DNA of 64,000 nucleotides, from positions 36,382 through 100,381 of the forward strand of contig JAWLBL010000005.1 in the NCBI GenBank assembly GCA_041687695.1, written 5' to 3'. Origin of the DNA: Myxococcota bacterium. GTDB taxonomy: Bacteria > Myxococcota_A > UBA9042 > PHBI01 > JAWLBL01. A model generated the notes under the pieces. The model did no database searches. It was not told the DNA's origin and was given only the letters and a program-made list of their open reading frames with translations. Below, one piece after another: positions 15,926 to 42,983 of the stretch; position 1 is the stretch's first letter, and the number at the start of each line of letters is the position of its first letter. The translations under genes were made by a program, and so were the position numbers.

Positions 15926-15927
15926 GT

Positions 15928-18634: not shown

Positions 18635-19045
18635 CGCCGCAGCCGAGCCTAGCAGGCTCCACATGCTTCGGTCTCGATGCGTGCTGGCTGACGTGGCCGG
18701 GGCCGAGGTCACCAGTTGCACCGAGCCCCCAGCACCAGCAAGCACGAGTCGGTGCAGGACCGGGTCGACCTCGTCCCGCGAGCGGCCCGGTCCCCTGACT
18801 CATGCCTATGCCGATCCTCCTCTGCTTCGCCTCATCGAGGGCCCGCGACTCGGCTCAGGCTCATGTCGATGCTGGTCAGTGCTTTGCCAGTTCCCCCGCA
18901 TTCGCCTGACGAGCAACGCCGGGGCGTGGCCCTGGGCGGCTGGACCTCAGCCGCCACCGCTGTGATCGGCCTATGGTCAGGGAGCCGCTTCTCCCAGCGC
19001 GCGGTTCATGATAGGTCTCTCCAACCTGCTATCGATGGAGAAGTC

Positions 19046-21823: not shown

Positions 21824-22054
21824 CGTATCGCCGCCGATCGTGGCTCGAGGGAAGCTCGTAATGTGGATCTCACGCGTCCCATGGGTGTCGCGAGGTGGCT
21901 TGAGGTGCGGAGGAATCCGGCCCGAAACCGTCGCCTCGGGACGGTGCGGATTGACACTGCTGCGGGCCGATGGGTAGCGTCCGGGCACGCGCGCGGTCGG
22001 AGGGCTATGGAGTCGTCGGCCGAGCCGTGAACGCAAGGCTGGGCAGGTGCGGCG

Positions 22055-25732: not shown

Positions 25733-25790
25733 CGGCTTCGGCGCGGCAGGCAGGCGCCACCGCGCCGCAACACGATCGCCTGGGGTGCGG

Positions 25791-25820
25791 TTGACGAGGT
25801 CCGTCAGGGTCTCTTAGGGT
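25791..25820 (+). promoter_or_regulatory. putative promoter of the tail/CIS operon
   Basis: TTGACG-18 nt-TAGGGT in the short intergenic gap. Confidence 0.35.
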
Positions 25821-25856
25821 CTGGCCTTCCAGCTTGGAGGCCGGATCCTGGACTTC

Positions 25857-26798
25857 GTGGACGCGACACTCGTGCGGCTCGCCCACCCTGCGGCGCGGGA
25901 GATGCTGGTGGGCGCGGCGGCGCTGGCGCGGGTGGCGGCGGCGGCGTACGACGCGAGCCGGCTGGCGATGGGGCCGCCCTACGAGGCGCGCTTCGACGAG
26001 GTGAGGATCGGCCAGGTGCTGCCCGCGAGCGCGCGTGGCGAGCTGCGCTGGGCGCGGGACGACGGACAGGACCGGCGCGTCGGCGGGTTCGAGGTGCACG
26101 GGCTGGGCGGCGAGGCGGACCTGGCGGTCGACTTCACGTGGCTGGGCGCGGTCGTGGCGCGGGTGGCGCCCGGCGGCGGACGGGTGGCCGCGGTCGACGT
26201 GGCGTGGCCGAGGGTCGCGGAGATCGACCAGCGCGTCGCGGAGCGGCTCGGTGCCTTGCCGAGCGGGGCGGAGGAGCGCGAGCGGGCGCGGCGCGAGGCG
26301 CTGCTGGGGCTGATGCGGGCCGAGGCGGGCGCGTCGGAGGCGGTGGACGAGGCCAGCCTCGGGCGGCTGCTGGCGCGGGCGGGGGTGGCGTCGGTGGGCG
26401 CGCTCGTCGCGTCGCGAGGGCAGGCGGCCGCGTTGCGGGTGCGCTGGGAGGCCGACGACACCGGGGCGGAGCCGGGGCCGGTGGCGCTGCCGATCGCGGC
26501 GGCCGGCCTGGTGCGTGATCCCGCGGCCGCCGGGTTCTCGCTGCGAGAGCTGCTGGCGACGAGCGCGAAGGTGCGCGCGCGCATGGGCGCGCTGGGGATC
26601 GAGCGCCCGGTCGACGAACGGCTGCCCAGACGACACGGTGCGCTGGTCCTGTGGGTCGTTCCGCGCGCGTGGTTCGACGACCCGCACTGGCCGGGCGGCG
26701 AGGAAGCCTCGGACGACGAGGCGCGCCGCCAGGCCCGCATCGAGGCCGCCAGCGCGTGGCTGAGCGCCGAAGGCATCGTCATCGTCGACGTCCCCTGA
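25857..26798 (+). CDS. hypothetical protein (first gene of the CIS operon)
   Basis: 313-aa ORF with typical codon bias; start uncertain. Confidence 0.6.
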   Translation: MDATLVRLAHPAAREMLVGAAALARVAAAAYDASRLAMGPPYEARFDEVRIGQVLPASARGELRWARDDGQDRRVGGFEVHGLGGEADLAVDFTWLGAVVARVAPGGGRVAAVDVAWPRVAEIDQRVAERLGALPSGAEERERARREALLGLMRAEAGASEAVDEASLGRLLARAGVASVGALVASRGQAAALRVRWEADDTGAEPGPVALPIAAAGLVRDPAAAGFSLRELLATSAKVRARMGALGIERPVDERLPRRHGALVLWVVPRAWFDDPHWPGGEEASDDEARRQARIEAASAWLSAEGIVIVDVP

Positions 26799-26840
26799 CC
26801 CGCGAACCCTGCCCTACCCCGAGACGCCAGGAGTGAAGCC

Positions 26841-28010
26841 GTGACATTGCCCGCCGCCTATCCCTTCGTTCAGGTCCGCGTCGACACGAGCGGACTGCAA
26901 CCGGTCGCGCAGCGCGCGCCCGGCGTCATCGCCATCGTCGGCGACACCAGCGGCGCCGGCACGGCCGCGCCCAACACCCCCTTCCGGGTCGACACCCTCG
27001 CGCAGGCCGCCGAGCTGTTCGCCACGGTGACCGCCGGGGTGGTCACCGAGACCCCGCTCTACCGATCGCTGCAGGTGGCGCTGCTGCAAAACCCCCGGCC
27101 GTCGAAGATCTACGGCGTGAGGGTGGACTCCGACGACTACGAGGCCGCTCTGGCTTCGCTCGACGCCGCGGACGACGTGACCTTCGTGGCGCTGGCCGGC
27201 GTGCCGGTCGAGGCGACCGGCGCGAGCGCGAAGCTGTCGGCGCTCAAGGCGCACTGTGAGAACAACTCGGCCGCCGGCCAGCGGCGGATCGGCGTGGCGT
27301 ACCTGGATCCCGCGATCGGCAAGTCCGCCACGCATGTGGCCGATGTGGTCACGGCGGCCTCCGGGCTCAAGAGCGACACCAGCCGCATGATCTTGGTCGC
27401 GGCCCGCGGCGCGGCCGACGGCCAGGGCGGCGCGGTCGACGTGGCCAGCGCCGCGATGGCCGCCATGGCTGGTTACGCGCCGCACATCTCGATGGTGCTC
27501 AAGCGCGTCGTGGGCTTTCGAATGCCCGTCGCGTCGCAGTATTCGCCGGCCGAGATCAACGGGCTGAGCGAGGCGAACATCATCCCCATCATCGACCCGG
27601 CGCTCGTCATGGGTGAGAGCCTGCACTTCGCCGAAGGCCGCTGCTTCACGACCGACGCCAACCTGACCTTCATCGACGTGGTCCGGACCCTGGACGACGT
27701 CGAGTTCCGGCTCAAGGCGGGGCTCATCGGGTTGGTCGGCGACGCCCGCGTCACGCGCTCGGGCCTCAACGCCGTCGTGACGACCTGCGAGGGCATCCTC
27801 GAGCCGCTCGAGCGGGCGGCGGTCATCGACGGCTTCGCGATCGACATCCCCGTGCTGCGGATCCTGAACCTGCCCGAGACGGCGCGCACCGCCGGCGAGC
27901 AGCAGACCGTCGCGGACGCGCGGGCCAACCGCCTGGTCGATCTGCTGGTATCGGTCACGCTCGGCCCCGCGGTCCACCGCCTGGTCGTCACGCTGCAACC
28001 CCGTTTCTAG
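26841..28010 (+). CDS. contractile tail sheath protein
   Basis: P.VQVRVDTSG..PV...PGVIAIVG N-terminus; YSPAEINGLSEANI.P...FIDVVRTLD...L.GL.G...V.LGPAVHRL.V C-terminal sheath core. Confidence 0.8.
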   Translation: MTLPAAYPFVQVRVDTSGLQPVAQRAPGVIAIVGDTSGAGTAAPNTPFRVDTLAQAAELFATVTAGVVTETPLYRSLQVALLQNPRPSKIYGVRVDSDDYEAALASLDAADDVTFVALAGVPVEATGASAKLSALKAHCENNSAAGQRRIGVAYLDPAIGKSATHVADVVTAASGLKSDTSRMILVAARGAADGQGGAVDVASAAMAAMAGYAPHISMVLKRVVGFRMPVASQYSPAEINGLSEANIIPIIDPALVMGESLHFAEGRCFTTDANLTFIDVVRTLDDVEFRLKAGLIGLVGDARVTRSGLNAVVTTCEGILEPLERAAVIDGFAIDIPVLRILNLPETARTAGEQQTVADARANRLVDLLVSVTLGPAVHRLVVTLQPRF

Positions 28011-28034
28011 CATCCCCCCTCGGAGGCCATCGCC

Positions 28035-28454
28035 ATGCCGGATTGGAAATCGCGCCTGGTGGTCAAGTACAACGCCGACGGCGTCTACAAGACCATCACC
28101 CCCATCGACTCGTTTCAGCCCTCGTTCGCCATGAACGCCGAGGTGCTGCACTCCATCGAGCAGAGTCACATCGGGGTCGTCTACTCGCCCGAGCAGATCA
28201 GCTTCACGATGACGGTCAAAGCCCTGGGGACGGCCGCCGCAGAGCTGACGACGCTCGCGCTGTCGGGCAAGCGCTTCGACGTGACGCTCGAGGAGCAGGA
28301 CGACGGCAACGACTGGTCGTTCACCAAGGTCGTGCTGCGCGACTGCGTGATCACGAGCGCCTCGCCGACCTCGGCGAGCCCCAACGGGGCACCGACGGCG
28401 TCGTTCTCAGGCTTCAGCCTGGCCGGGTCGGCGACCCCGCGGGGGGCCGCGTGA
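28035..28454 (+). CDS. tail tube protein
   Basis: 139-aa beta-rich protein directly after the sheath; FDVTL.E...VVLRDCVITSA pattern; GGAGG RBS. Confidence 0.7.
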   Translation: MPDWKSRLVVKYNADGVYKTITPIDSFQPSFAMNAEVLHSIEQSHIGVVYSPEQISFTMTVKALGTAAAELTTLALSGKRFDVTLEEQDDGNDWSFTKVVLRDCVITSASPTSASPNGAPTASFSGFSLAGSATPRGAA

Positions 28455-28461
28455 CGCGCGC

Positions 28462-28755
28462 GTGGAGGCGCTCGTGACGAAGATCCGTGGGCTCGGGGGC
28501 GGCACGCTGGATGGGCCGGCCAAGCGCGTCACGCGGACCGGCCTCGCGCTGGTGCACGAGGGCGAGCTGGTCCTGCCGGCCGCGGGCAGCGAGGCGCAGG
28601 CCGTGGTCGTCGCCGAGGACGCGCGCCAGGTGGTGCACTACCACTTCCCCATCGAGATCGTCGTGCAGGGCCGCGGGGCCGAGCCGGTGGACGTCGAGGC
28701 GGCGATCGACCGGCGCCTCGCGGCGCTGGTCGACGAGCTGAGGAACCTCGCGTGA
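28462..28755 (+). CDS. small protein with tape-measure C-terminal-like motif
   Basis: GGG...RTGLALVHEGELVLP resembles the GG.V...G.A.(V/L)H.GE.V.P motif of tape measure proteins. Confidence 0.5.
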   Translation: MEALVTKIRGLGGGTLDGPAKRVTRTGLALVHEGELVLPAAGSEAQAVVVAEDARQVVHYHFPIEIVVQGRGAEPVDVEAAIDRRLAALVDELRNLA

Positions 28756-28776
28756 CGGAGGTCGGATAAGCGCCAG

Positions 28777-31913
<3,137 letters not shown>

Positions 31914-31914
<1 letters not shown>

Positions 31915-32999
31915 TGGCGCGGTTGTTCCACTTCCGTGGCGAGGCCAGCCTCATCGACGTCACCGCGCGGGTGAACAGCGACCCCAGGCTGGTGAGGTTC
32001 CGACGAACGCTCGAAAAGCGCTACCCGCCCGAGCGGGCGCAGGCGATGGTCGAGGACATGCTGGTCGCGGGGATGCGGCACTTCGGCGATCAATACGTCG
32101 CGGTCAACGCCGACCGGCTCGATCGGGTGCTCGCGCTGCGCGCGGCGCTCGAGGATCAGTACCACATCGTGCTGAAGTCCGGGCGAGGCAAGGGACGGAC
32201 CATCGGTGTGACGGCGGCTCAGCGCAAGGCGAACCTGATGGACATCGAGCGCTTGTACGCCGAGCTCGATGAGACGTTCGACGCCCTGGGGCGGCCGACC
32301 GAGGGACTGGACCTGGCGACCTCCAAGGGCGACCTGGCGAGACGCTTCAAGGCGAGCATCGAGCGGCACCTGCCGGGCCAGCGTCCGCACAGGACTCGCA
32401 GCGTCCGACGCGACATGCGGGTCGAAGCTGGCCAGAAGGTTTCGCGCTTCAAGCGGCACGGCTTCAAGCGGGTCGAGCCCGGCGTCTACGCGCTGACGTT
32501 CAAAGACGGCACGTCCGTGCGTTACGAGGTCGTCGAGGGCCGCTATCGGCTGCAGACCTTCGACCCAAACGGGCAGCTCGTCCTCGAGTTCGGAGAATAT
32601 GACACGCTCGTGTCGCCGTACCGCAACCGCCCCAAGACCTCCAGCATCATGAACGCCCATCACGGCCTGCAGAACGACTTGATGAAGCTCGCCTTCGAGG
32701 ACTACGGGTATGACGGCGGCGCGGTGCCCACGATGTGGCTTCGGGATGGCCGGGCGGGGTCGCCGCACGGCATGATCACCGCCATGCAGAACAGCACCCA
32801 TGCGGCGCGGACCAAGCTGAAGACTCCGACCTACTCCCAGATTCGCGACTGGGGCATTCAGGACATGCGCACCGCGGGGGTGCCGACCGCAGCCATCCAC
32901 GAGTACCTGGCGCACATGGACGCCTATTTCCGGCGCGCCGTAGTGCCCAACCTCGAGCGCTCGGGCGAGCTGCGGCGCCTGGGCACCTGGGAGCCATGA
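31914..32999 (+). CDS. polymorphic toxin with C-terminal HNH/EndoVII (Tox-SHH-like) nuclease
   Basis: NAHHGLQN...GYD...VPTMWL...SPHGMITAMQ...DMRTAGVP; ATG 31914. Confidence 0.7.
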
Positions 33000-33898
33000 T
33001 GTCATTCGACCGCCTCGACAAGCTCCTCGACGCGCTCGACGTCGACGCCGAGCCGGCGCCCAGGCCCAGCGACGACGAGATCGCCCGCGCCCGATCGGCC
33101 GGTCCGGTCCCGATGCCGCCCGAGCTCGAGCACGTCTATCGCCGCGCCTACGAGGTCTATCTGCCCCAGGGCGCGTCCATCTTCGGGCTGTTGGACTATG
33201 TCGACGTCAACCGGCAGCAGCACCTGTTCGAACGGCTGCCCGGGGTCGCGTTCTTCGGGTCGGACGGCAGCGACGGCTTCTTTTTCATCGACGTCGGCGG
33301 CGCGCTCGGCCACAGCCCGGGCGCCGTGTTCTGGGTGTCGCGTGGGAACCTCCAGCCCGACGCCTGTGTGCCGTGCGGGTGGCACCTTGTGGACTTTCTG
33401 GCCAAGGTGGTCGCCGGCGAGGTGCCGTGGGACGGGCCCTCGCTGATGAAGACGTCCGTCCAGCGTATGACGGCAGCGCTCGACGCGCGTCCAGACGGGT
33501 GGGACGCGATGCCCCCGGTGGCGCCCGAGAAGATCGACCAGCACGCATGGGCGACGATGACGCCGATTACGCCGGTGACGGAGAAGCTCTTGTTGCGCGG
33601 CGAGCGGATCCGCTTCGTGGCGAGCGGGGTCGTGATCGGCGGGCTGGAGGCCATCACCCCCGTCGCAGGGACCGCGGACGCAGACGGCATTCCGAGCGCG
33701 GTGTGGGTGGGCTCCGGCCCCGACGGGACGCGCTATGCGGTGACCGCGGGCGGCTGGCGAGACCTGCCGCGCGACCGGCTGATCGCGGTGCCGCCGGGTG
33801 GCACGGCCGAGACCGGGCGCGTCATGGGCCTGTTCTCGGACGTCGTGACGGCCTGGGTCGAGGGGCGCACGCCGCCGGGAGGGACGAGCCGTGGGTGA
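32996..33898 (+). CDS. SMI1/KNR4 (SUKH) family immunity protein, probably two domains
   Basis: PPELEHVY...IFGL...FFGSDGSDGFFFID...GAVFWV; ATGA-coupled to the toxin gene. Confidence 0.75.
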   Translation: MMSFDRLDKLLDALDVDAEPAPRPSDDEIARARSAGPVPMPPELEHVYRRAYEVYLPQGASIFGLLDYVDVNRQQHLFERLPGVAFFGSDGSDGFFFIDVGGALGHSPGAVFWVSRGNLQPDACVPCGWHLVDFLAKVVAGEVPWDGPSLMKTSVQRMTAALDARPDGWDAMPPVAPEKIDQHAWATMTPITPVTEKLLLRGERIRFVASGVVIGGLEAITPVAGTADADGIPSAVWVGSGPDGTRYAVTAGGWRDLPRDRLIAVPPGGTAETGRVMGLFSDVVTAWVEGRTPPGGTSRG

Positions 33899-34433
33899 AA
33901 AGTTCGGTCATCGCCACAGCTATGTGCGTTACGCGAGCACCGAGGGTGGGCTCGACCTGACGGTCCCGTCGGCCGTCCTGTCGGACGGCGGGCTGCTGTT
34001 CATCCCGCTGTACGCGGTCAGCGCGATGACGCTCGGCGAGAGCTACAGCGTCCCGCCCCTCAGGGGCTCGGGCGAGAGCCTGGCCAACGTCAGCGAGGAC
34101 ACTGTCACGCTCAGCGCCCTGCTGGTCGGCGCCGAGCGCTTCGCGTGGAAGTTGGCCCTCGAGATGGCCGCCGAGTCGGCCGTGCGCGGCAGCGCCGTCG
34201 CGAGCTACAGCGGCGGCAAGATCACGGGGCTGTTCCTGGTGACGTCCATGACCATCCGGAGCGACATGTTCATCCGCTCGCTCACCTTCTCGGTGAACAA
34301 CCAGAGGCGCCAGGCGATCGAGGTCTCGATGACCCTCGTCCACCAGCCCAGACCCGGCGCGCTCGCCCCCCTGCTCGATCTCGCCAGCGTCGCCCTGTCG
34401 ACCCTGGCCAGCGGCATCGCCTACGGCGCTTGA
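33891..34433 (+). CDS. hypothetical baseplate/tube-initiator-like protein
   Basis: 180 aa, beta-rich (DTVTLSALL...DMFIRSLTFS...IEVSMTL), located before the hub gene. Confidence 0.5.
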   Translation: MGEKFGHRHSYVRYASTEGGLDLTVPSAVLSDGGLLFIPLYAVSAMTLGESYSVPPLRGSGESLANVSEDTVTLSALLVGAERFAWKLALEMAAESAVRGSAVASYSGGKITGLFLVTSMTIRSDMFIRSLTFSVNNQRRQAIEVSMTLVHQPRPGALAPLLDLASVALSTLASGIAYGA

Positions 34434-35041
34434 GGCTCGATTTGGCACCCACTCCCTTCTCCCAGGTCGACCTCTTGGTGGCCCCCTCGCCGATGGCCGC
34501 CGCGCTCGCGGCCACGGGACCGAGCGAGCTCGCCCGCCTACGGCACTCGATCGCGCGCGGCCTGCCCAGCGTCATCCCCCTCGACAACGAGCTGCAGCTC
34601 GTCTTGACGCTGCCCACGGGGCAGGTGCGGCCTTGGCTGGCGCTGAGCGTCGACCAGGTGGTGAGCCGCTCGGCCGAGGAGAGTGCGCCCCACCCCGCGA
34701 GTGCGGCGTCGCCCCCCCAGGAGGTCGTCGCGCGACCGCCGCTGTCGTTGGTCCTGGTTCGGCGCAACCGGCCGGTCGCGGCCGCGCCGCTGGTCCTCGG
34801 TAGCCGACGCCTGCTGCCGAACTCGGGCGGCGCGCCGGCCGTCATCGAGCTGCTGGTGCTGGGGTGGGAGGTGCGCGCTGGCAGCCTGCGAGGGCCCGGG
34901 GACGTCGGGTCATGGATCGAGCTGGCCTGGCGCCGCGTCGATCGGGGGACGTCGACCTTCGCTCCGCCGCCGATCCCCGTTGGGGTCGCCCAGCGCGTGG
35001 CCGCCGCCCTGGCCGCGGAAGGCGCAGGGGACAGCCCGTGA
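34430..35041 (+). CDS. hypothetical baseplate-associated protein
   Basis: TTG 34430 overlaps the previous TGA; its stop overlaps the next GTG. Confidence 0.5.
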   Translation: MRLDLAPTPFSQVDLLVAPSPMAAALAATGPSELARLRHSIARGLPSVIPLDNELQLVLTLPTGQVRPWLALSVDQVVSRSAEESAPHPASAASPPQEVVARPPLSLVLVRRNRPVAAAPLVLGSRRLLPNSGGAPAVIELLVLGWEVRAGSLRGPGDVGSWIELAWRRVDRGTSTFAPPPIPVGVAQRVAAALAAEGAGDSP

Positions 35042-37017
35042 CCGGTGCGCCCGAGACCCGCTACGGCAACGATCCGGGCTGGCACCTTGCGCTGAGCAGG
35101 GGAAGCCAGGATGTCCTCGCGATCGGCTGCGAGCAGTACCACGCCACCATCGAGGCCAGCCTGCCGCACGGGCTCGCCGGCGGCAGCTACGTGTTCACCA
35201 TCGAGGGACTCACGAACGAGGACTACCAGCTCCTCGCCGGCGCCTTCGAGCCGACCGAAGTGCTCGAGGCCCGCCTGTACCTGTACTGGCGCGACGTGAA
35301 CTCGGGCGTCTTGGGTTACCTGGCCAACATCGGCGGCTTTTCGGGTGCGAGCCCTTCCCTGACCGGCGAGGCGGCCGACGACCACCTGGTGGCGGTGCTG
35401 GCGGTGACCGAGGTGACGCGGGTCGCCAAGCCGCTGCGCTACGACGCCGTCGTGCGGGCGAGAGAGCTCGTCTACCATCGGCTGGCGACCCACCGGACGG
35501 CCGAGGGGATCGCCGCCGACTCGCCCCTGGAGGCCGCCAAGGAGCTGGCGATCGCGGCCGGGCTCTCCATCGACCAGGTCGAGGTTTTTCCACCCGAGGG
35601 CGGGGACCCCGACGCGGGCCAGACCCACGGGGAGCGGGAGCAGTTGCCGGTCAGACAGTCCACCGTGCAGGTGCTCCATCGCCTCGGAGAGCGCATGGCG
35701 GCCCAATATGCCCGCTGGGGCCGGGGGATGTACCGGATTCGGCGCGGCATTTTGGAGATGGGGCCGAGGCGACCCATCCCGACGATGGACTTCGAGGTCA
35801 CGGACCTGTCGGCGACCGACGGCGTGCTGAACGTGGCGGCGCGAGGGTGGGTCGCGCGGGACCCGTCCCGCACCGACGCGGTCGAGGCCGGGCAGGAGGG
35901 CGCGGCGCGGCGCAGGTGGGAGCTGACGCTGCGTGGCCACCCGGGGTTGGGGCCGGGAGACGTGGTCTCGTTCGTCCCGCCGCTGGGCGAGCAGCCGCCT
36001 GGCTCGCCGCCCTGGTACGCGCCCGGCGTGCTGGGGTTGCTGGCCCCGGGCCAGAGCGCCGAGCAGCCGGCAGCCATCCTGGGGTACGTCGAGGGCGTGA
36101 CCCACAGCGTCGGGCGCGGGCGCCCGTTCGTGACGCGGCTCGCTTGCGTCGAGGTCACACGCGACGACGTGTGGGACGAGCGCGGCCAGGCGCACGCGGA
36201 CGACCCGGAGCAGGAAGACGCCGTCGAAGGCAGCCCCACGGTCGTCGGCGAGCTGGCGCGCGCGGTGCGGCGCTCGGGCGCGGAGACCTTCGCCAGCCGC
36301 CATCAGGCCGAGATTGGCGAGGTGCGCGCGACCCACGGCGCCGGTGGCGAGGGGGTGCCAGGCCAGACGTCCGACTATCTGCGTGGCGTGCAAACCGACG
36401 GGGGACCCAGGCAGGCGCGGCGGGCGAAGGTCGAGCGCGTGGTGCCCGACCGACAGGACCGGGTCCCGTACGTGACCCCGTTCGCGCTGGGCCCCTTCGG
36501 GCTGGTCCTACCCCGATACCCGGGCACGCGCACGCTGCTCGTGCACCGGCAGGGGCTCGCCGAGGATCCGATCGACATCGGCGCGCTGTGGCCCACCGAG
36601 GGCAGCGACCAAGCCGGGCCCAATACGGCCAAGCCGGGGGATTGGTGGCTATCGCTGCCGGCCAAACCCGAGCCCGTCGCGGAGCTCGAGCCGCGAGACG
36701 ACGCCGACGCGGTGCAGCTCGAGTTCGAGTTCGCCAGCAACGACCTCATCGACGCGCAGGGCCGGCGATACATCGATACGGCCGAGCTGGTCATTCGCGT
36801 TGGGACCGAGAACCTCGCTCGGCCCGGCGAGCGTCCGACCGCTGAACCCGGCGTCGCGGTGCTGATCGAGCACATCGACAAGAGCTCCCGAATCGAGATG
36901 AGGACCGATGGCACCATCGCCATAGAGGCGGCGAGCGACCTCATCCTTCAGGCCGGAGGCCACGTGAAGGTCAAGGTGGGCAAGGGCAAGACGTTCGACG
37001 TGGAGGAGAGCGCGTGA
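35038..37017 (+). CDS. VgrG-like fused baseplate hub (gp27/gpD) and spike (gp5 OB-fold plus short beta-helix)
   Basis: GHPGLGPGDVV...YVEGVTHS (hub); VPYVTPFA...LPRYPG..LLVH..G..EDPIDIGALW (OB fold); SRIEMRTDGTIAIEAASDLILQA (beta-helix). Confidence 0.75.
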   Translation: MTGAPETRYGNDPGWHLALSRGSQDVLAIGCEQYHATIEASLPHGLAGGSYVFTIEGLTNEDYQLLAGAFEPTEVLEARLYLYWRDVNSGVLGYLANIGGFSGASPSLTGEAADDHLVAVLAVTEVTRVAKPLRYDAVVRARELVYHRLATHRTAEGIAADSPLEAAKELAIAAGLSIDQVEVFPPEGGDPDAGQTHGEREQLPVRQSTVQVLHRLGERMAAQYARWGRGMYRIRRGILEMGPRRPIPTMDFEVTDLSATDGVLNVAARGWVARDPSRTDAVEAGQEGAARRRWELTLRGHPGLGPGDVVSFVPPLGEQPPGSPPWYAPGVLGLLAPGQSAEQPAAILGYVEGVTHSVGRGRPFVTRLACVEVTRDDVWDERGQAHADDPEQEDAVEGSPTVVGELARAVRRSGAETFASRHQAEIGEVRATHGAGGEGVPGQTSDYLRGVQTDGGPRQARRAKVERVVPDRQDRVPYVTPFALGPFGLVLPRYPGTRTLLVHRQGLAEDPIDIGALWPTEGSDQAGPNTAKPGDWWLSLPAKPEPVAELEPRDDADAVQLEFEFASNDLIDAQGRRYIDTAELVIRVGTENLARPGERPTAEPGVAVLIEHIDKSSRIEMRTDGTIAIEAASDLILQAGGHVKVKVGKGKTFDVEESA

Positions 37018-37466
37018 TGACCAACGACGACACCGATCGCAGGCGGCGCTTGCTCGGCTGGGGCGTGGCCTCGGCCGAGATCGCGCCCGGCGCGGCCCTG
37101 GCCCGGGACGTCGTCCTGGTCGCCGGGCCCGGCGGTCTGGACTTCGCCCGGGTCGAGGGGCTCGACGCGCTGGCCCAGGACCTGACGGTGGCGATGACGA
37201 CGGCGCGCGGGTCGGACCCGTTCAACACGACCTTCGGCTTCGACGGGCTGAACGCGCTGACGGACGACACGCCGCCGGGCCTGGTGGGCGAGCGCCTCCG
37301 CTTGGCCGTCATGGCGTTGCTGCAGCGCGACGCGCGCGTGCGGCGCATCCTGGACGTGACGGTGGGCCGCTCGCGAGGGCGGACGCTCGACGTCACGGTC
37401 CGCTTCGAGGCGCTCGGTGGAGATCAGGTCGAGATCGGCCTGGGGACGGTGGGGATCGATGGCTGA
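37014..37466 (+). CDS. gp25/GpW-like baseplate wedge (sheath initiator)
   Basis: GLDALAQDL..AMTTARGSDPFNTTFG...LQRDARVRRI. Confidence 0.8.
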   Translation: MMTNDDTDRRRRLLGWGVASAEIAPGAALARDVVLVAGPGGLDFARVEGLDALAQDLTVAMTTARGSDPFNTTFGFDGLNALTDDTPPGLVGERLRLAVMALLQRDARVRRILDVTVGRSRGRTLDVTVRFEALGGDQVEIGLGTVGIDG

Positions 37467-38916
37467 CACGACGACGACGATCGATCTGGCGGAGATTCTG
37501 GCGGTCGACCGCGAGCAGGCCCGCAAGACGGGCGCGGACCGCTTCGGGGTGACCGAGGGTGGCTTCGCCGCCAAGCCCTTCGGGCAGCTGCTGGCCGAGA
37601 AGGTCGCGCTGGCCCAGGAGGTCTTCGGGGCCGACCTGGACCTGACGGCGGGCTCGGTCATCCGAAAGATCCTCGAGTTGACGGCCCTCGAGGACGCGCG
37701 CACCTGGGCCGCCCTGTCGAGCATGTATGACAGCCAGTTCGTCGCGACGGCCACGGGCGACGCGCTGAGCCGGCTGGGCGAGGAGCTGGGCTTTTCGCGG
37801 CCGTTTCAGCGGGCGGGCGGGCGGATCGAGCTGACCCTGGTCGGGCCCCTGGCGGACCCGCAAGGATCGGTGCGCATCCCGCGCGGCGCAAGGCTGCTCA
37901 CGGCGGGCGGGCACCACGTCGCGACCGAAGAGAGCGTGGTACTGTCGGCGGCGCGCAAGCAGGCCCGCGTCGGGGTGAAGGCCTTCTACCCGGGGCCCGA
38001 ACACAACCTGGACCCCAGCCAGCCGGGCCAGGCCATCGTACGCTGGAACGAACTCGACCAAGCGCTGTCGGGGCTGCTCGCCGCCAGGGACGCCGCCTCC
38101 GCGGCCTCGGGCCAGGCGATGGAGCTCGAGCAGGTGGTCAGCGTCAAGCACACGACGGCCCTGACCGGCGGCGAGCAGCTGTGGCCCGACGTGCGCTACC
38201 GCGAGCTGCTGTTGCGGGCGCCGCGGTCGGTGTGGACGGTCGAGGCCATCGAGATCGCGCTGTCGCGGGTGCCCGGCGTGCGGCAGGTGCAGGTGCGCGA
38301 TGCCTGGGGTGGGCTCGACCTGTACCAGTCGCTGTTCGGCAACTTCAACTTCATCGAGCGGCTGTTCGGGGCCGAGCGCGACGTCGGCTCGCCCTACTAC
38401 TTCACAGTGCTGATCGCGCCGACGCCCGAGGCGATCTGGGGCGGGCCGGACGGGCTGCGGGCGGCGGTCGAGGCCGCCATGGAGGACCTGCGACCCGTCG
38501 GCATCTTCCCCCAGGTGGTGCAGGCCGAGGAGGTCGGCATCGGCGTGGCGGCCGAGCTGGTGGTCAGGGGGCTGCCGCTGCCGTCGGGCAGCCGCGCCGT
38601 GGTCAACGGGTCGCAGGCGGCGGGGGCGCTGAAGGCGCGCCTGCTCGAGCGGGTGCGGCGCTACGTGGACGGGCTGCGTTTCGGCGAGCCGGTGCGGGCC
38701 TCGGAGGTGACCTGGGCGCTGATGAACGAGCCGGGCATCGCGGACGCCACGGGCCTCGAGCTGGTGCGCTACCCGCCCGCTTTCGACGCGCTGGATTTGG
38801 GGGCGGCGGTGCCGTCCGGGCAGCTCGAGCGTCTGGGATGCGGCAAGAACGCAAACCTGCAGGGCAATCAGATCGCCGTGCTGATCGACGACCCCGAGCT
38901 GCTGGTGATCACGTGA
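37459..38916 (+). CDS. baseplate J/gp47 family protein
   Basis: FGVT..GF..K, FVATATGDALSRLG, IPRGARL, LTGG...DVRYRE, VPGVRQV motifs. Confidence 0.85.
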   Translation: MADTTTTIDLAEILAVDREQARKTGADRFGVTEGGFAAKPFGQLLAEKVALAQEVFGADLDLTAGSVIRKILELTALEDARTWAALSSMYDSQFVATATGDALSRLGEELGFSRPFQRAGGRIELTLVGPLADPQGSVRIPRGARLLTAGGHHVATEESVVLSAARKQARVGVKAFYPGPEHNLDPSQPGQAIVRWNELDQALSGLLAARDAASAASGQAMELEQVVSVKHTTALTGGEQLWPDVRYRELLLRAPRSVWTVEAIEIALSRVPGVRQVQVRDAWGGLDLYQSLFGNFNFIERLFGAERDVGSPYYFTVLIAPTPEAIWGGPDGLRAAVEAAMEDLRPVGIFPQVVQAEEVGIGVAAELVVRGLPLPSGSRAVVNGSQAAGALKARLLERVRRYVDGLRFGEPVRASEVTWALMNEPGIADATGLELVRYPPAFDALDLGAAVPSGQLERLGCGKNANLQGNQIAVLIDDPELLVIT

Positions 38917-41237
38917 GCGACGCGACCGGAGCGCTGGACGCCGACGGGCTGCGGGCGGCCTCACACCTGAACATGCGACGGCACCTGGCCACGCCGCTGG
39001 CCGCTGGCGCCGTGGACGAGGAGGTGGCGGTGGACGCCGCCGGCCGGGCGCGTGTCACCTGGAGTCCGCGCGAGCCGCTGCTCCTGCTCGGCCTGCGCCT
39101 GGATCTGGGGGACGAGACGCTGCGGGTCGAGGCGACGCTCGATCCGGACGGCGACCCGCGACCGCTGACGCCGCTTCGCTTCGACGCCTACTCGGAGCGC
39201 GGCTCGTTTCTGCCGCTGCACACCCCCGAGGTCGACGGCGGCACGGGGCGAGCGGCGCCGTTCGAGGTGACGCTGACCGTCCACGGGCCGGATGGCGTGG
39301 CCCTGAGCGCGGCCGAGGTGGCCGAGACCGTCGAGGTGCGCCTGGTCGAAGGACAGATGGGGCGGCTGCTGTACGTCCTGGGGGCCGAGAAGCAGCGCAT
39401 CCGGCGGGTCGCGCGCGAGATCGCCGCCATGCGCCGCGTCGAGACGGCGCGCGACGAGGCGCTCGATCGGATTGGGCGCGAGCTGGGCGTCGGCCGCTTC
39501 GCCGAGCGGCTGACGTGGCGGCCCGCGGGCGAGGGCGTCAGCGGCGAGCTGGTCACCGAGACGGCCCGCGAGGACGACGCCGCGTATCGGCGACGGCTGG
39601 CGCTCTACAGGCCGCTGCTGATGCCGACCCGAGCCAACGCGCTGAGGCTGCTCAACGGCGACGGCGCGGCGCCGGGGCCGCTGCAGCGCATGGGGCTGGC
39701 GCACGCGGTGGGGCTGGCCGAGGCGGACCACCCCTTCGCGCTGGCCGTGCACCTGGTGGGGGCGGCGCCGGGCGGAGCGGCGGCCAAGGCGTTCCGCACG
39801 CGGTTCCTTGCCCACCTGCGGGACACGCGGCTGGTCGATCCGACGGTGGCCGTCCCCGAGCACCGGCGGCTGCCATCGACGCAGCGGGCACGCGAGGATG
39901 CCCTGCGCGAGCGGCTCCGGGCCGGGCTGACCTTCGAGAGCGCCAGCCGGGCCATGGCCCCGGCGTTGGCGGCCGCGCTGGACCGCGTCGTCGCCTGTCG
40001 CGCCGCCCTCGGCCTGGCCGACCCGCTGCAGGTCCGGCGCGCCCAGCGCGACGACGGCGGCAGCCGCTACCAGCTGGGGCTGGGGGTCGACCTGAGGCGA
40101 CCGCAGCCTGCGAAGCTCGCGGCGATGGCGCAGCGCGCGCTCGCCGGGCAGCTGGAGGCGGCGACCCCGCCCGAGGTGCGCGCGCTCGTCGCGTCGATGA
40201 AGCCCGCGCCGGCCGACGAGGACCCGGTGGGGCGCTGGCTACTCGAGCCCTGCGGGCTGCGCACGGTGCACCGGCTGGACGGCGCCTGGACCTATGCCTC
40301 GCACCTGTACTCGGCCGGGCTGCGCATCTCCGGACCCGACGCGGCCAAGCCGGACGAGCCGCTGGAGCTGCACGCGCACTGGGCCGCCGACGGGGACTCC
40401 GAGCACAACGTGGTCCTGGCCAGCGCCCTGGCGGGCGCGGTCGACGGTTGGACGGACGAGCCCTGGACCGTGCTGGTCGGCGCCGCCGAGCGGGCCGCCT
40501 GGTCGGCGACGATCGCGGCCGACGCGCCGACGACGACCGCCTTCCGCGCCGCCGGGCTGCCGGTGGTCTCCGACGTGCCGCGCCTGCGCGCCGCCTTGGA
40601 GCGCTTCCCGGGCGAGCTGGTCGCGACGATTCAGCTCGGGCCCGCCCTGGCGAGCGCGCTCCACGCGGGAGCGCTCGACGCGGCCGAGACCTTGGAAGGG
40701 TTGGCGGCGCGCCTGACGGCCGGCGGGGTCGCCTCGCTGGTGCCCCTGACCACCGCCGACGGGCGCGCCCTGGTCGTGCTCGGGGCCGTGGCGCTCCCGC
40801 AGGTCGGGACCAACCGGGCCAGCCGGCGCGCCGCGGGGTTCCGCTGGTATCAGGTGCCGCTGCACGGCCCGGGCGGCCAGGTCCGCGAGGTCGGCAGCCG
40901 CACGGTCTTCACCGCGGCGGGCCCCGGTCTGACCGCCCTGGTGGCGGTGGGCTACGCGCGGGTGGGCGGCACCGATCCCTACGAGATCCGCCCCGAGCTG
41001 CCCCCCGGGGCCACCCTGGATCTGGCGCAGTACGAGTACCTGATGAACGCGCTCGATCACCTGCACCCGATGGGGGTCGAGGTGAACACCTGGACGCTGC
41101 GGCAGGCGCACGTCGACCTCACCGGCGACGGGGTGGCGACGCCGCTGCCGCCCGACGTGGCTCGCACCTATCGCCCGTTTCGACGGCCTCGCCACGTCGG
41201 CGACCCGTCGGTCCCGCTCGAGCCCGACCCCAGCTGA
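38913..41237 (+). CDS. baseplate wedge/tail protein I-like protein with long extension
   Basis: ALDRIGRELGVGR...EDDAAYRRRL and C-terminal LDHLHPMGVEV motifs; GTGA-coupled start. Confidence 0.65.
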   Translation: MSDATGALDADGLRAASHLNMRRHLATPLAAGAVDEEVAVDAAGRARVTWSPREPLLLLGLRLDLGDETLRVEATLDPDGDPRPLTPLRFDAYSERGSFLPLHTPEVDGGTGRAAPFEVTLTVHGPDGVALSAAEVAETVEVRLVEGQMGRLLYVLGAEKQRIRRVAREIAAMRRVETARDEALDRIGRELGVGRFAERLTWRPAGEGVSGELVTETAREDDAAYRRRLALYRPLLMPTRANALRLLNGDGAAPGPLQRMGLAHAVGLAEADHPFALAVHLVGAAPGGAAAKAFRTRFLAHLRDTRLVDPTVAVPEHRRLPSTQRAREDALRERLRAGLTFESASRAMAPALAAALDRVVACRAALGLADPLQVRRAQRDDGGSRYQLGLGVDLRRPQPAKLAAMAQRALAGQLEAATPPEVRALVASMKPAPADEDPVGRWLLEPCGLRTVHRLDGAWTYASHLYSAGLRISGPDAAKPDEPLELHAHWAADGDSEHNVVLASALAGAVDGWTDEPWTVLVGAAERAAWSATIAADAPTTTAFRAAGLPVVSDVPRLRAALERFPGELVATIQLGPALASALHAGALDAAETLEGLAARLTAGGVASLVPLTTADGRALVVLGAVALPQVGTNRASRRAAGFRWYQVPLHGPGGQVREVGSRTVFTAAGPGLTALVAVGYARVGGTDPYEIRPELPPGATLDLAQYEYLMNALDHLHPMGVEVNTWTLRQAHVDLTGDGVATPLPPDVARTYRPFRRPRHVGDPSVPLEPDPS

Positions 41238-41248
41238 GAGAGGCCCCG

Positions 41249-42628
41249 ATGCCCACCGAAGATTTCCTGTCGAGCCTGCTCGATGAAGAGCTGACCAAGT
41301 CGATCCAGGTCATCGACAAGCTCGAGGTGACCCAGACGGCCAAGCAGCAGCTCCTGGGGCTCCTCATCCTGGACAAGCTGGGGCAGACCAAGCGGGTGTT
41401 CGCCTATGGCGAGCCGTTCGCCGCGGCCGAGCCGGCCTGCGCGCCCGAGTTCCAGCGCAGCTTCGAGCACGTCGACTGGGTCGACGGCGAGAGCGTGGTG
41501 CAGGCGGAGCAGACGCCCGGCGAGCTGGGCTTCAACCAGCGCTTCCACCGCATCGAGGACGACCTGGACGGCCTCGGCAAGGACGTGGCCAAGGCCTTCG
41601 CGTGCCTGGCCAGCCTGCGGCAGGAGGTGGCTGCGCGGCTCGAGGACCTCAGCCGAGCGCTGAACCTGGTCCACGGCGACATCCACCAGTGTTGCCACGC
41701 GAGCGCGCAGCCCGCGAGCGGCGGCACGGCCCAGGTCCTGCCGGCGCAGGGGTGGGGAGCGCTGAACCCGGCGCTCATCGCGGCGGCCGCAGGGTGGCAG
41801 ACCGGCGCGCCCGCCGGGCCGGCGCCCGCGCCCATCTTCCTGATGCCCGGCCAGCTCGCCTACGCGGGCGGCCAGCCCTGGATGTGGATGACCGGCCCCG
41901 GCGCCGGACCGCCCACTACCAGCGACCCGGCGCCCGTCGATCCGACGAAGCTGGCCCCGGGGGCCCGCGCGGCGGTCGGCGGGTTCGAGGCCACCTACGT
42001 GGGCGTCGAGGCGATGGCCGGCCGCTGGATGCACGTCTTCGCGAGCGACTTCGGGTTGCTGCTCAAGGCGGTCGAGGGCGAGGCGCCCACGGGCGAGGTC
42101 CGCTATCGGGACGCCGCGCTCGAGGACGTGGCGGCGGTGGCGAGGTGGGCCGCGAGCAACGAGCGTTTGGTCGCGCGCGCCTTCCCGGACGGCGGGGTGA
42201 CGGCCGAGGGCCTGCTCGCGCGCTTCGGCGACGCCGACGTGGGCGGCGGCCGCACCCTGGCCGAGGCCATGGCGGGCGTCCCGGCGGCGACGCGCTTCGA
42301 GGACGCCGGGGCCATCGGCGCGGAGGTCGCCGCCATCAAGGGCCAGGCGTTGCGCGCGAGCGGGCGCCGGTCGGCGGCGTTGGTCGGCGCGCTGGGGATG
42401 GAGGCGGCCGGAGCGCGTGCCGGGGCGTTGCCGCTGGGCCGCTTCGCGTGGATGCCCGACGAGGCGCGGCAGGTGCTGACGAAGGCCGGGCTGGGGACGA
42501 TCGCTGCGCTGGCGTCGGCGCCGACCAAGCAGCTGCTGGCGACGCTGAAGGCGGCCGGGGTCACGGCGGCCGCGGACGAGGTCGAGGCCTGGAAGGCGGT
42601 CGCGGGCGCGATCGGACAGGGCCAGTGA
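41249..42628 (+). CDS. putative tail fibre/accessory protein
   Basis: DWVDGESVVQA...GFNQRF plus coiled coil; HhH-like C-terminus (LTKAGLGTIAALASA); GAGAGG RBS. Confidence 0.5.
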   Translation: MPTEDFLSSLLDEELTKSIQVIDKLEVTQTAKQQLLGLLILDKLGQTKRVFAYGEPFAAAEPACAPEFQRSFEHVDWVDGESVVQAEQTPGELGFNQRFHRIEDDLDGLGKDVAKAFACLASLRQEVAARLEDLSRALNLVHGDIHQCCHASAQPASGGTAQVLPAQGWGALNPALIAAAAGWQTGAPAGPAPAPIFLMPGQLAYAGGQPWMWMTGPGAGPPTTSDPAPVDPTKLAPGARAAVGGFEATYVGVEAMAGRWMHVFASDFGLLLKAVEGEAPTGEVRYRDAALEDVAAVARWAASNERLVARAFPDGGVTAEGLLARFGDADVGGGRTLAEAMAGVPAATRFEDAGAIGAEVAAIKGQALRASGRRSAALVGALGMEAAGARAGALPLGRFAWMPDEARQVLTKAGLGTIAALASAPTKQLLATLKAAGVTAAADEVEAWKAVAGAIGQGQ

Positions 42629-42629
42629 C

Positions 42630-42983
42630 GTGGCGCCGCGGGCGGTAGCCTGTGAGGGGGACGTCGCCGCGGTGGTCGGGGCGACGCCGCTGACGCCGGC
42701 CAAGTCGGGGACGTGGACGGCCGACCCGGTGCGCCACGGCCGCTACGAGCACGTGCGGGTCGGCGGGACGCCCGTCGTGGTCGAGGCGCGCTGCGTCTTC
42801 CGCTTCTCGGGGGCGGACGCGGACGGCAAGGCGGTCGTCGGCGATGAAGAGGTCGTGCTGACGGCCGGGGCGACCGTGTGGATGGGTAGTGCCGAGGGCG
42901 TGCTGGCGCACGGGGACGCCGCGGCGAGCCCGCACGGCAACCGGCTGGAGGTGGTGAGCGCGCGGCCGGCGCGGACGGGCTGA
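42630..42983 (+). CDS. PAAR-like spike-tip protein
   Basis: 117 aa; AVACEGD...VRVGGTPV...C...GVLAHGD...HG pattern at the end of the operon. Confidence 0.55.
   Translation: MAPRAVACEGDVAAVVGATPLTPAKSGTWTADPVRHGRYEHVRVGGTPVVVEARCVFRFSGADADGKAVVGDEEVVLTAGATVWMGSAEGVLAHGDAAASPHGNRLEVVSARPARTG

Follow-up and report, generated by a model that had tools for sequence, protein, structure and literature searches.

What does a bacterium make with a set of phage-tail genes to which no head belongs? This question is raised by an operon of 15 genes, here called the cassette, at positions 25857..42983 of a 64,000-nucleotide stretch of DNA, the window, taken from contig JAWLBL010000005.1 (positions 36,382 to 100,381, forward strand) of the Myxococcota bacterium assembly GCA_041687695.1. 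Contractile injection systems (CIS) draw interest both as weapons of bacteria and as programmable devices for protein delivery, and genome surveys detect them via profiles derived from Afp/PVC, from type VI secretion systems (T6SS) or from known phage tails. Our analysis indicates that the product of the operon is probably a headless contractile injection particle, loaded with a polymorphic toxin as cargo and belonging to a distinct lineage derived from phage tails. The parts of this reading are not equally firm: we regard it as highly probable that the cassette is a functional headless CIS of a separate lineage and as reasonably probable that the toxin is the delivered cargo of the particle, and we hold extracellular action on other bacteria to be a tentative proposal that falls slightly short of an even chance. 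A preliminary description of the window had arrived at a domesticated weapon derived from a myophage tail, and its claims are taken up below together with the results that bear on them.

Results

A compact operon with a short sheath and a phage-type baseplate

Genes were called on the plus strand with a heuristic of our own that uses third-position GC framing and is not a trained gene finder; because the window is 73% G+C, plain lists of open reading frames (ORFs) are full of spurious frames. Fifteen co-directional genes, all with open frames, span the operon and are labelled g1 to g15 in their order, and related loci in other genomes carry L-numbers. The genes, with strand, product length in amino acids (aa) and basis of assignment, are as follows.

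25857..26798, + strand: g1, conserved first gene, 313 aa (beta-rich N-domain and predicted PD-(D/E)xK-fold domain)
26841..28010, + strand: g2, contractile sheath of the short two-domain type, 389 aa (PHROGs, AlphaFold, Foldseek, VIA)
28035..28454, + strand: g3, putative inner tube protein, 139 aa (position, size)
28462..28755, + strand: g4, small protein at the tape-measure-chaperone position, 97 aa (position only)
28777..31914, + strand: g5, large protein at the tape-measure position, 1045 aa (position, repeat, hairpin)
31914..32999, + strand: g6, polymorphic toxin, 361 aa (Pfam Tox-SHH at the C-terminus)
32996..33898, + strand: g7, predicted SUKH (SMI1/KNR4)-type immunity protein for g6, 300 aa (Atlas, weak Pfam match)
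33891..34433, + strand: g8, conserved baseplate-proximal protein, 180 aa (synteny)
34430..35041, + strand: g9, conserved protein, 203 aa (synteny)
35038..37017, + strand: g10, candidate central hub fused to the spike, 659 aa (C-terminal profile match)
37014..37466, + strand: g11, gp25-like sheath initiator or baseplate wedge, 150 aa (PHROGs, PDB profile)
37459..38916, + strand: g12, baseplate J or gp6-like wedge, 485 aa (Pfam, PHROGs, PDB profile)
38913..41237, + strand: g13, large wedge protein with a gpI-like segment, 774 aa (short profile match)
41249..42628, + strand: g14, possible fibre or receptor-binding protein, 459 aa (conserved N-terminus, variable remainder)
42630..42983, + strand: g15, small conserved protein, 117 aa (homologues only)

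From g1 to g15 the junction spacings are 42, 24, 7, 21, -1, -4, -8, -4, -4, -4, -8, -4, 11 and 1 nt, so that most junctions overlap (by 1-8 nt) and the largest gap is 42 nt, in agreement with the compact operon of intact and coupled genes that had been described at these positions. A scan of the window for promoters and terminators gave results at or below chance, with 2 terminator-like sites observed vs. 2.7 expected from shuffles. Codon usage had been called host-like, and this stands with a small reservation: third-position G+C (GC3) in the operon is close to that of the adjacent genes but slightly lower (0.89-0.97 vs. 0.95-0.99). Overall G+C falls to 0.69-0.70 at 30-34 kb, over the end of g5, g6 and g7.

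General family libraries recognize little of the cassette. Pfam identifies two of the 15 proteins (Baseplate_J in g12 and Tox-SHH in g6), PHROGs assigns g2 (tail sheath), g11 (gp25-type wedge) and g12 (baseplate wedge), NCBIfam returned nothing meaningful for the 15 proteins and Rfam found no family in the window. Capsid, portal, terminase, integrase, holin/endolysin, LysM, DUF4255 and DUF4157 found no match in Pfam, PHROGs or NCBIfam among the 15 proteins, and in the 30 flanking ORFs of the window Pfam matched neither the same head, lysis, integrase and eCIS (extracellular CIS) families nor any T6SS family, as the preliminary description had maintained. The sole AAA-type match in the window is AAA_16, in a minus-strand ORF 15 kb upstream of the operon.

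The sheath is the best characterized component. The g2 product matches the tail-sheath families phrog_23/205 at E 1e-6 and no Pfam or NCBIfam family. Structures were predicted with AlphaFold for two of the 15 proteins, g1 and g2, and the g2 model, built from 24 homologues (pLDDT 78), is unmistakably of the sheath fold. Against the PDB, Foldseek gave 84 matches at E<=0.001, led by the diffocin CD1363 sheath (6gkw, 2.9e-12) and followed by phage 812, with pyocin R2 at 1e-9, and the best 50 matches of Foldseek and of VIA alike are contractile tail sheaths or CIS/phage tail assemblies. VIA aligned the model to solved sheaths with Z 19-26 over 284-322 residues, including those of phage 812, pyocin R2 (3j9q; Z 24.8, root-mean-square deviation 3.5, 301 aa), diffocin, Streptomyces CIS, T4, Mu, AFP, PVC, haloarchaeal CIS and Anabaena CIS; no T6SS sheath is among the best 50 structural matches. 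With a spread of only about 6 Z units and 11-19% identity to all solved sheath classes, none of these classes stands out. A g2 sheath profile found nothing at E<=1 among PDB sequences. The gene is single-copy in the host genome, and the single short sheath of the earlier account is thus upheld by family, model and structural comparison.

Two baseplate proteins are also clear. Protein g12 matches Pfam Baseplate_J at 1e-6 and phrog_6 at 2.7e-36, its profile retrieves PhiTE wedge 2 (3.2e-7) and phi92 gp145 (1.2e-5) from the PDB, and it is found in 57 of the 64 related loci that are long enough, with 51-62% identity across the five loci that we examined over an extended range. Protein g11 matches phrog_120 (4.7e-8) and phrog_43 (1.9e-5), and its profile the phi812 wedge (9.2e-10), a gp25-like protein (2e-4) and Anabaena CIS All3318 (0.0073); it occurs in 60 of the 64 loci. 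The gp25 and phage-type baseplate J that had been proposed are therefore both present.

The remaining structural genes were compared with the same related loci, with alignments that omit the tube of L018 and g10 of L049 on account of an internal stop in the called ORF. In each of the 75 loci g3 comes after the sheath; its earlier designation as the tube agrees with its position, its size and the similarity to a myophage gene given below, but matches to Hcp are weak (Pfam T6SS_HCP E 0.095; Hcp1 chains E 0.19 and 0.24), and PHROGs assigned 34 tube homologues to no consistent family (two families, one member each). Gene g8 was detected in all 64 loci long enough and g9 in 49 of them; g8 shows a weak match to Pfam Dit_like (E 0.12), g9 has no match in Pfam, PHROGs or NCBIfam, the profile of neither finds a PDB sequence at E<=1, and hhalign detected no similarity of g8, g9 or g1 to the tube profile. 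Gene g10 is present in 64 of 64 loci, without a Pfam or PHROG match, and the C-terminus of its profile (592-657) resembles the gp5/Vgr CIS spike chain 9gtr_q (4.6e-5) and chain 7aef_q (3.4e-4), so that within the fused hub-spike announced earlier only the C-terminus shows such a match, and a weak one. For g13, found in five of five genomes searched at 42-54% identity, residues 151-195 of the profile match phi92 gp146 at a weak 0.0018 and Pfam yields an off-target match only, which leaves the gpI-like label to that short segment. Within the conserved baseplate core, the gp25-like and J proteins are clear and the gpI-like segment and spike-like C-terminus weak.

At the end of the operon, g14 is present in five of five extended loci, with matches confined to the N-terminal ~35-156 in three and longer in L085 and L089, and has no match in Pfam, PHROGs or NCBIfam, so the fibre-like label once given to it could not be sustained by any family. 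The same holds for the PAAR-like label of g15, for which there is no Pfam match at E<=10 and a best PDB profile match of E 0.77 to an unrelated protein; its homologues (33-44% identity) occur in three of the five extended loci and in L099 and L011. Behind the tube, g4 has a tblastn homologue in 46 of 75 loci and no family match in Pfam, PHROGs or NCBIfam; at its place an ORF of 61-113 aa was called in most loci. A readthrough fusion of g4 and g5 was considered and dropped: the two are in the same frame in the window, but in L018 they are not.

The cassette recurs without a head in distant phyla

A collection of 5.8 billion proteins contains 651 homologues of the sheath, the best 120 of which are 57-73% identical to it; such identity across phyla points to strong purifying selection. 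Among these 120, the named homologues are called hypothetical except for one 'phage tail sheath gpL-like', and the source names include Actinomycetota, Cyanobacteriota, Chloroflexota, Planctomycetota, Nitrospira, Acidobacteriota and Gammaproteobacteria. A pattern scan that covered 185,579 species, each represented by one genome, gave 162 matches, 75 of which are relatives of the cassette, and these cover eight named phyla plus Eremiobacterota. The order of the cassette genes recurs across the 75 genomes, and no head gene was found within the examined flanks (10 kb) of the 76 loci formed by the window and its relatives, so that a check on syntenic loci, on which the preliminary description had made its headless reading depend, came out in its favour.

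In each of the five extended loci only unrelated housekeeping genes follow g14/g15: CoaBC, UDG and HU in one; thiolase and acyl-CoA genes; phycobilisome genes and dehydrogenases; a two-component system; and cytochrome c' with LysR. AAA matches beyond g15 in these loci are unrelated ABC or AAA_16 matches on the opposite strand, and Pfam found no lysis family in the window or in the extended loci. Upstream, clustering of the ORFs of the 75 loci disclosed no widely shared gene besides g1 or its analogue; the clusters that do recur are host regulators, namely LuxR response regulators (10 loci), sigma-54 activators (6), SARP (5) and hybrid kinases (4).

The distribution is patchy. In a sample of the host's own phylum the sheath was found in none of 400 other genomes (1/401 with the host), and in the sheath tree the phyla interleave, with 21 label changes vs. 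a minimum of 7, which fits repeated transfer between phyla, given that the tree is unrooted and many rows are metagenome-assembled genomes. The tree comprises 72 rows, after four sheaths of odd length or with internal stops were dropped, and was obtained by a quick search with SH-aLRT support only.

The tail module is akin to that of two uncultured myophages

A tblastn search with the sheath against 50,697 phage records gave no match, baseplate J gave four weak partial matches, and a first scan of IMG/VR gave no relative. A HMMER profile of the sheath found 192 proteins at E<=0.001 among 1.84 billion representatives (58 at E<=1e-30), so few that the family appears small and isolated from mainstream sheath families. 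Longer sheaths (426-976 aa) form a second tier, most of which Pfam likewise does not recognize, and a profile built on this tier retrieved two IMG/VR contigs of 36-39% G+C, L100 and L101, from uncultured myophages.

These two contigs share with the cassette a sheath of 29-31% identity, a tube of 30-33% identity and the order sheath, tube, [tape measure], g8-like gene, hub, gp25 and J. The g3 profile matches the ORF after their sheaths at 2.6e-27 and 5.9e-30, the g8 profile the L100 ORF at 13123-14058 (6e-11) and g10, weakly, the L100 ORF at 14327-16021 (E 2.4e-4). At the position of g5 the phages have a canonical tape measure (in L101 phrog_1533, 2.1e-25), with two small chaperone-sized ORFs between it and the tube. 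Unlike the cassette, both phages possess major head and scaffold genes, and neither has a homologue of g1, g5, g6, g7 or g9 by profile or tblastn. Their sheaths match 76 of 76 cassette loci and their tubes 75-76 of 76, and none of their 17 head and neck ORFs matches any of these loci. The common tail order, in the absence of head ORFs, indicates that the cassette is kin to a myophage tail and yet a separate, headless chromosomal lineage, and derivation from a myophage tail, as earlier suggested, has thereby gained two concrete relatives. Recurrence in 75 genomes, flanks made of differing host genes and the lack of any head ORF of the phage kin also speak for a domesticated system and not for a decaying prophage.

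In L100 (2315-6237) and L101 (2992-7043) the interval from the major head gene to the tail module holds 2-3 glycosyltransferase genes, and in one of the two a methyltransferase gene as well.

A polymorphic toxin slot between tube and baseplate

Three genes had escaped the preliminary description: g5, with its product of 1045 aa, the toxin gene g6 and the predicted immunity gene g7. About 110 aa at the N-terminus of g5 are conserved; farther on, the protein has a (GGE)11 repeat (aa 375-407) and a hydrophobic hairpin (aa 851-883) that is the sole hydrophobic segment among the 15 operon proteins. By tblastn g5 is matched in 58 of 75 loci. In L012 and L026, ORFs with the N-domain of g5 stand beside the cassette, one of 672 aa downstream and one of 1510 aa divergent upstream, and since even these displaced ORFs retain it, the N-terminus of about 110 aa appears to be the constant, probably structural part of the protein.

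The start of g6 overlaps the stop of g5 by 1 nt. Residues 244-340 of g6 match Pfam Tox-SHH, a HNH/EndoVII nuclease family, at 1.3e-6, and the HH dyad is kept in all four sequences of the Tox-SHH type; the N-terminal part of g6, helical and about 140 aa long, is shared with other loci, and homologue searches with g6 returned just two further proteins. For g7, the top named cluster in Atlas is SMI1_KNR4 (0.93), and all of the ten best named clusters belong to the family or its clan. Homologues of g7 are confined to four loci, each of which also has a homologue of g6, and its family leads us to infer that g7 neutralizes g6. The sheath of the window groups with those of L018 and Caenispirillum, which are Tox-SHH/SUKH loci, with an SH-aLRT value of 97.

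ORFs were called between tube and g8 in 65 loci, and the content of this gap falls into five classes.

g5-sized ORF and a third ORF: 23 loci
g5-sized ORF, no third ORF called by the filter: 16 loci
single ORF of at least 1250 aa: 16 loci
largest ORF 300-899 aa: 3 loci
no large ORF called: 7 loci

Pfam detects toxin domains in eight of 27 gap ORFs scanned in other loci (Ntox4 in four, Tox-SHH in two, Endonuclea_NS_2 in one and WHH/Colicin-DNase in one) and no toxin in the remaining 19. Ntox4 is tabulated as a PVC-associated toxin by Zhang et al. 2012 (PMC3482391). The third ORFs resemble one another over their N-terminal 120-170 aa or so and diverge at their C-termini; a shared N-terminal region, differing C-termini and several toxin families are thus all found, as is characteristic of polymorphic toxins. 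Moreover, the C-terminal 450 aa of the third ORF of L003 recur as the C-terminus of six of the 16 long g5 ORFs, a split-versus-fused pattern that links g5 to the slot. A predicted immunity gene directly follows the toxin in the window and in the four loci with a g7 homologue, and not in the four Ntox4 loci. The protein-cargo delivery proposed before any toxin had been noticed is consistent with this polymorphic slot, situated inside the operon and accompanied by a predicted SUKH-type immunity protein.

Two further loci may be mentioned in this connection. L102, at 12195-28927 of the Streptomyces canus linear plasmid NZ_CP109336.1, is a distant headless relative (sheath 33.5% identity) that has baseplate J and a LamG protein of 1028 aa but, between its tube and baseplate, no gene of tape-measure size; it is annotated almost wholly as hypothetical and is flanked by an AHH-domain protein and a DNA/RNA non-specific endonuclease, which suggests that the wider superfamily is also toxin-associated. 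In L086, on Paraburkholderia chromosome 4, a gene for a T6SS Tle3 phospholipase effector (8887-11088; Pfam 2.9e-102) lies on the opposite strand, three genes past the cassette.

The first gene and the upstream region

Gene g1 has a tblastn homologue in 57 of the 72 loci with at least 1.1 kb of upstream sequence. Its AlphaFold model (pLDDT 90.5) has no Foldseek match in the PDB or BFVD at E<=0.001; VIA aligned about 105-125 residues of it with PD-(D/E)xK nucleases, namely NucS (2vld; Z 8.2, a level that VIA rates as common, root-mean-square deviation 3.1, 104 aa), AF1548 (7.4), 2okf (7.2) and SduA (6.5). In the Atlas language-model search the named leads, REase-ARP/NucS_C/SduA_C, scored only 0.76-0.83, and unnamed clusters 0.89-0.90. 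The invariant columns of 30 homologues hold no K or E, and as a lead we take the predicted domain to be probably a non-catalytic restriction-endonuclease-like fold. The family consensus MxFxD fits LDFVD read from 25848, and the true start may lie three codons earlier, at CTG 25848. In the leader of g1, positions 25820-25835 hold TGGCCTTCCAGCTTGG, which is like a sigma-54 -24/-12 element with one extra spacer base and GG replacing GC; a loose sigma-54 pattern gave 23 window matches vs. 13 expected, none of them in this leader, and was dropped.

In 13 actinobacterial loci (L062, L064-L069, L071-L076) another ORF of about 326 aa precedes the sheath at the position of g1; tblastn shows no resemblance between it and g1, and Pfam assigns it to no family. 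The loci that lack g1 and g9 are largely these 13, most of which have no detectable g9.

Two very large plus-strand ORFs lie directly upstream of g1 (18716-25732). The one of 1035 aa occupies a stretch of low G+C (0.64-0.66) and has Cys-rich Dicty_CTDC-like repeats; the one of 1225 aa begins like a lipoprotein and also contains Cys-rich repeats and, in two stretches by Pfam, Ig_7/CHU_C-associated Ig-like domains. Neither has a tblastn match in any of the 75 loci. The low-G+C stretch at 18716-21823 (3.1 kb) was considered as rRNA and rejected, as Rfam gave no match. Farther upstream, at 11332-15925, a minus-strand gene for a 1044-aa PLD-nuclease/helicase/DUF3427 protein is followed by two AbiEi-like regulators (14653-15189, plus; 15320-15925, minus), and this region, which lies 10-14 kb upstream of the cassette, has the look of a small island of defence genes; these genes are not conserved beside the cassette in other genomes. 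Elsewhere in the window there are three minus-strand HIT-domain ORFs (2008-2499, 5058-5465 and 6974-7336), the coding signal is poor between 5.5 and 8.3 kb, and ARAGORN called a 95-nt tRNA-Gly(CCC) on the minus strand (53281-53375) inside the FGE-sulfatase/DinB ORF 52997-54316, which is probably a false call because Rfam reports no tRNA there.

Discussion

A headless particle probably armed with a polymorphic toxin

Judged by its genes, the cassette is a new lineage within the known contractile injection systems, probably armed with polymorphic toxins. A more specific proposal joins several elements, namely a separate, phylum-spanning class of CIS, toxins loaded through the scaffold at the tape-measure position, either fused to its C-terminus or docked by an N-terminal adaptor, and a first gene with an inactivated nuclease fold; taken jointly, these we put forward tentatively, at a little under an even chance. 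In such a system the particle would be assembled in the cytoplasm, since none of the 15 proteins has a signal peptide. A baseplate of g10, g11, g12 and g13 together with g8/g9 would nucleate a tube of g3 wrapped by the g2 sheath, in which g2, g11 and g12 owe their places to homology or fold and the other parts are assigned conjecturally. By analogy with a tape measure, g5 would lie in the lumen of the tube, and we propose it as a lumen scaffold and cargo carrier; g6 would ride with it, docked via its N-terminal region of about 140 aa, as gene fusion and synteny suggest, and in other genomes the cargo is apparently made as one long g5 ORF. Going by its family, g7 would protect the producer and its kin from g6. 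After release, the particle would bind its target, probably via g14, whereupon contraction could drive spike and tube into the target, g5 and g6 would be expelled, and the hairpin of g5 may help the nuclease to cross the inner membrane of the target.

A number of points weigh against this picture. To begin with, the system is known here from its genes alone, and no gene for lysis, secretion or anchoring was found in the operon, in the ORFs of the window or in the five extended loci. Weak similarity or position is what connects several products with their proposed roles, namely g3 with the inner tube, g8 with a tube-initiator or Dit-like function, g9 with the baseplate, g10 with a fused hub-spike, g13 with a gpI-like wedge, g14 with a possible fibre or receptor-binding role and g15 with the system as such. 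Protein g5 has no tape-measure family in Pfam, PHROGs or NCBIfam, its profile misses the canonical tape measure of L101, and its PDB profile matches are Gly-linker artefacts only; it ranges from 339 to 1585 aa across loci and is displaced from the gap between tube and baseplate in two of them (L012 and L026), which makes it a poor fit to a strict length ruler. The Pfam match of g7 to SMI1_KNR4 (E 0.045 over profile positions 2-123 of 125) is below the curated cut-off, as is the one of its L018 orthologue (4.9e-5 over a shorter stretch). Pfam found no toxin in 13 long ORFs at the g5 position (12 of the 16 of at least 1250 aa and the 1140-aa ORF of L038), so that toxin cargo is evident in part of the family only, and in the four Ntox4 loci the toxin ORF abuts g8 and leaves no room for an immunity gene.

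Comparison with known systems and alternative explanations

The missing lysis, secretion and anchoring genes lend themselves first of all to an intracellular explanation, in which a CIS like that of Streptomyces fires inside its producer or at the producer's membrane, in regulated cell death, a stress response or anti-phage suicide, and does not serve as a weapon against others. The host regulators upstream in other genomes, the defence-type genes 10-14 kb upstream in the window and the nuclease-type fold of g1 agree with such a role, as does the hairpin of g5, which is similar to the one in Sle1, itself an effector belonging to a cytoplasmic CIS. We nevertheless consider this explanation unlikely. 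A polymorphic toxin slot together with a cognate immunity gene is what cells that antagonize one another typically possess, a variable protein like a receptor-binding one (g14) is present, members of the family are found in Gram-negative as well as Gram-positive phyla, and the defence genes do not accompany the cassette elsewhere.

The eCIS (Afp, PVC, AlgoCIS, Streptomyces CIS) are, like the cassette, headless, toxin-associated and without a dedicated lysis cassette. Likeness extends to the spike chains 9gtr_q and 7aef_q matched by the C-terminus of g10, to the sheath fold (Z 22-24) and to Ntox4 in four sister loci. The eCIS are defined by their gene order and a list of hallmark genes, several sheath paralogues are usual in them, and the Pfam families Phage_sheath_1/1C and Phage_T4_gp19 define the sheath and tube parts of Afp. 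In contrast, the cassette has one sheath gene, without a match to Phage_sheath_1, and neither g2 nor g3 matches the eCIS sheath and tube families (Phage_sheath_1/1C, Phage_T4_gp19) in Pfam at E<=0.01. Its gene at the tape-measure position lies between tube and baseplate, whereas the eCIS have theirs after the baseplate. No Afp15-type AAA+ ATPase was found among the 15 proteins by Pfam or NCBIfam, and no Pfam match to the DUF4255 cap Afp16, the LysM hub protein Afp7 or the DUF4157 effector core in these proteins plus 43 gap and cargo ORFs of other loci, although divergent versions could escape such a search.

An ordinary R-type tailocin, which kills by depolarizing the membrane and in which g6 and g7 are a hitch-hiking toxin-immunity moron that is not loaded, is likewise an improbable account, if one with real attractions. 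Like pyocin R2 and diffocin, the cassette is headless; its one short sheath, built of two domains, falls into their size class and has both among its top structural matches; its gene order, with the baseplate after the tape-measure position, is phage-like as in tailocins, and g14 combines a conserved N-terminus with a variable remainder as tail fibres do. Tailocins, however, carry lysis genes, an own lysis cassette being a defining feature of the R type, and are not known to carry protein cargo. The cassette has the headless tail cluster, but no holin, endolysin or other lysis gene was found in the window or in the five extended loci. Its toxin-immunity slot is fixed inside the structural operon, with a shared N-terminal region and sometimes as the C-terminus of g5, and a toxin-immunity pair at this place also speaks against killing by puncture alone. 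Identity to tailocin sheaths amounts to only 16-19%; hub and spike seem to be fused, g13 makes a large wedge protein of 774 aa and a conserved g1 stands in front.

We attach very little probability to an inert tail remnant of a decaying prophage, which the phage-like gene order, the head-bearing phages among its distant kin and the rarity of the cassette (0 of 400 other genomes in the sample of the host phylum) might bring to mind: the 15 ORFs are intact and coupled, their boundaries recur in 75 species of at least nine phyla, the sheath is conserved at 57-73% identity across phyla, GC3 is near that of the host and no examined flank contains a head remnant.

Least credible of all is a cell-anchored, T6SS-like apparatus that fires from the producer through its own envelope, for although the cassette shares with T6SS a contractile sheath-tube machine, a weak tube match to Hcp and no other, a lack of lysis genes and polymorphic nuclease toxins with immunity proteins, which are typical T6SS cargo, it has a single fused sheath gene in place of TssB and TssC, a gene at the tape-measure position, a J-type wedge and a membrane segment in g5 alone, it shows no T6SS sheath among its best 50 structural matches, and TssB plus TssC, ClpV, TssJLM, TssK and TssA found no Pfam or NCBIfam match in the operon or in the 30 window ORFs.

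Taken together, the hallmarks of eCIS and T6SS and the tailocin lysis cassette that we looked for were not found, and the sheath is 11-19% identical to every solved class, so that the statement that the locus fits none of the three has stood up well. No description of the cassette was found in the literature accessible to our search, which left aside the locus tables of the eCIS surveys (PMC6899500, PMC8213781, PMC12210884); with this literature scope, and with NCBIfam and the source names blank, the lineage may indeed be called possibly undescribed.

For the headless particle with a toxin as its cargo, the closest documented analogy is provided by Sle1 and Sle2. In the phage-tail-like particle of Streptomyces lividans, Sle1 is packaged in a CIS and works with the small partner Sle2; it is related to tape measures, has a hairpin of transmembrane helices and ends in a variable functional domain, and one relative forms a nuclease-like effector-immunity pair (Nagakubo et al. 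2026, PMC13277306). Set against that description, g5 and g6, known as they are from genes, present a similar combination of a hairpin protein at the tape-measure position and a partner. The likeness has its bounds: DUF4157 is part of Sle2, and the two genes stand apart from the structural operon, which is that of a canonical actinobacterial eCIS (PMC13277306), whereas in the cassette no DUF4157 was detected, the pair is inside the operon and the toxin belongs to the second protein or forms the C-terminal end of one long ORF.

The cassette is invisible to the profiles on which surveys rely, as Pfam recognizes two and NCBIfam none of its 15 proteins and its named homologues are called hypothetical, and yet its sheath is still about 60% identical across Cyanobacteriota, Actinomycetota and Pseudomonadota. 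If particles form, the census of contractile injection systems in environmental bacteria would be incomplete, and the cassette would offer a compact, ATPase-independent delivery chassis with a natural plug-in slot for toxins, as well as a testable model for the attachment of cargo in the lumen to a scaffold that resembles a tape measure. Should the proposed loading prove true, it would represent a third mode of arming contractile tails, beside the spike/Hcp loading of T6SS and the DUF4157/ATPase loading of eCIS.

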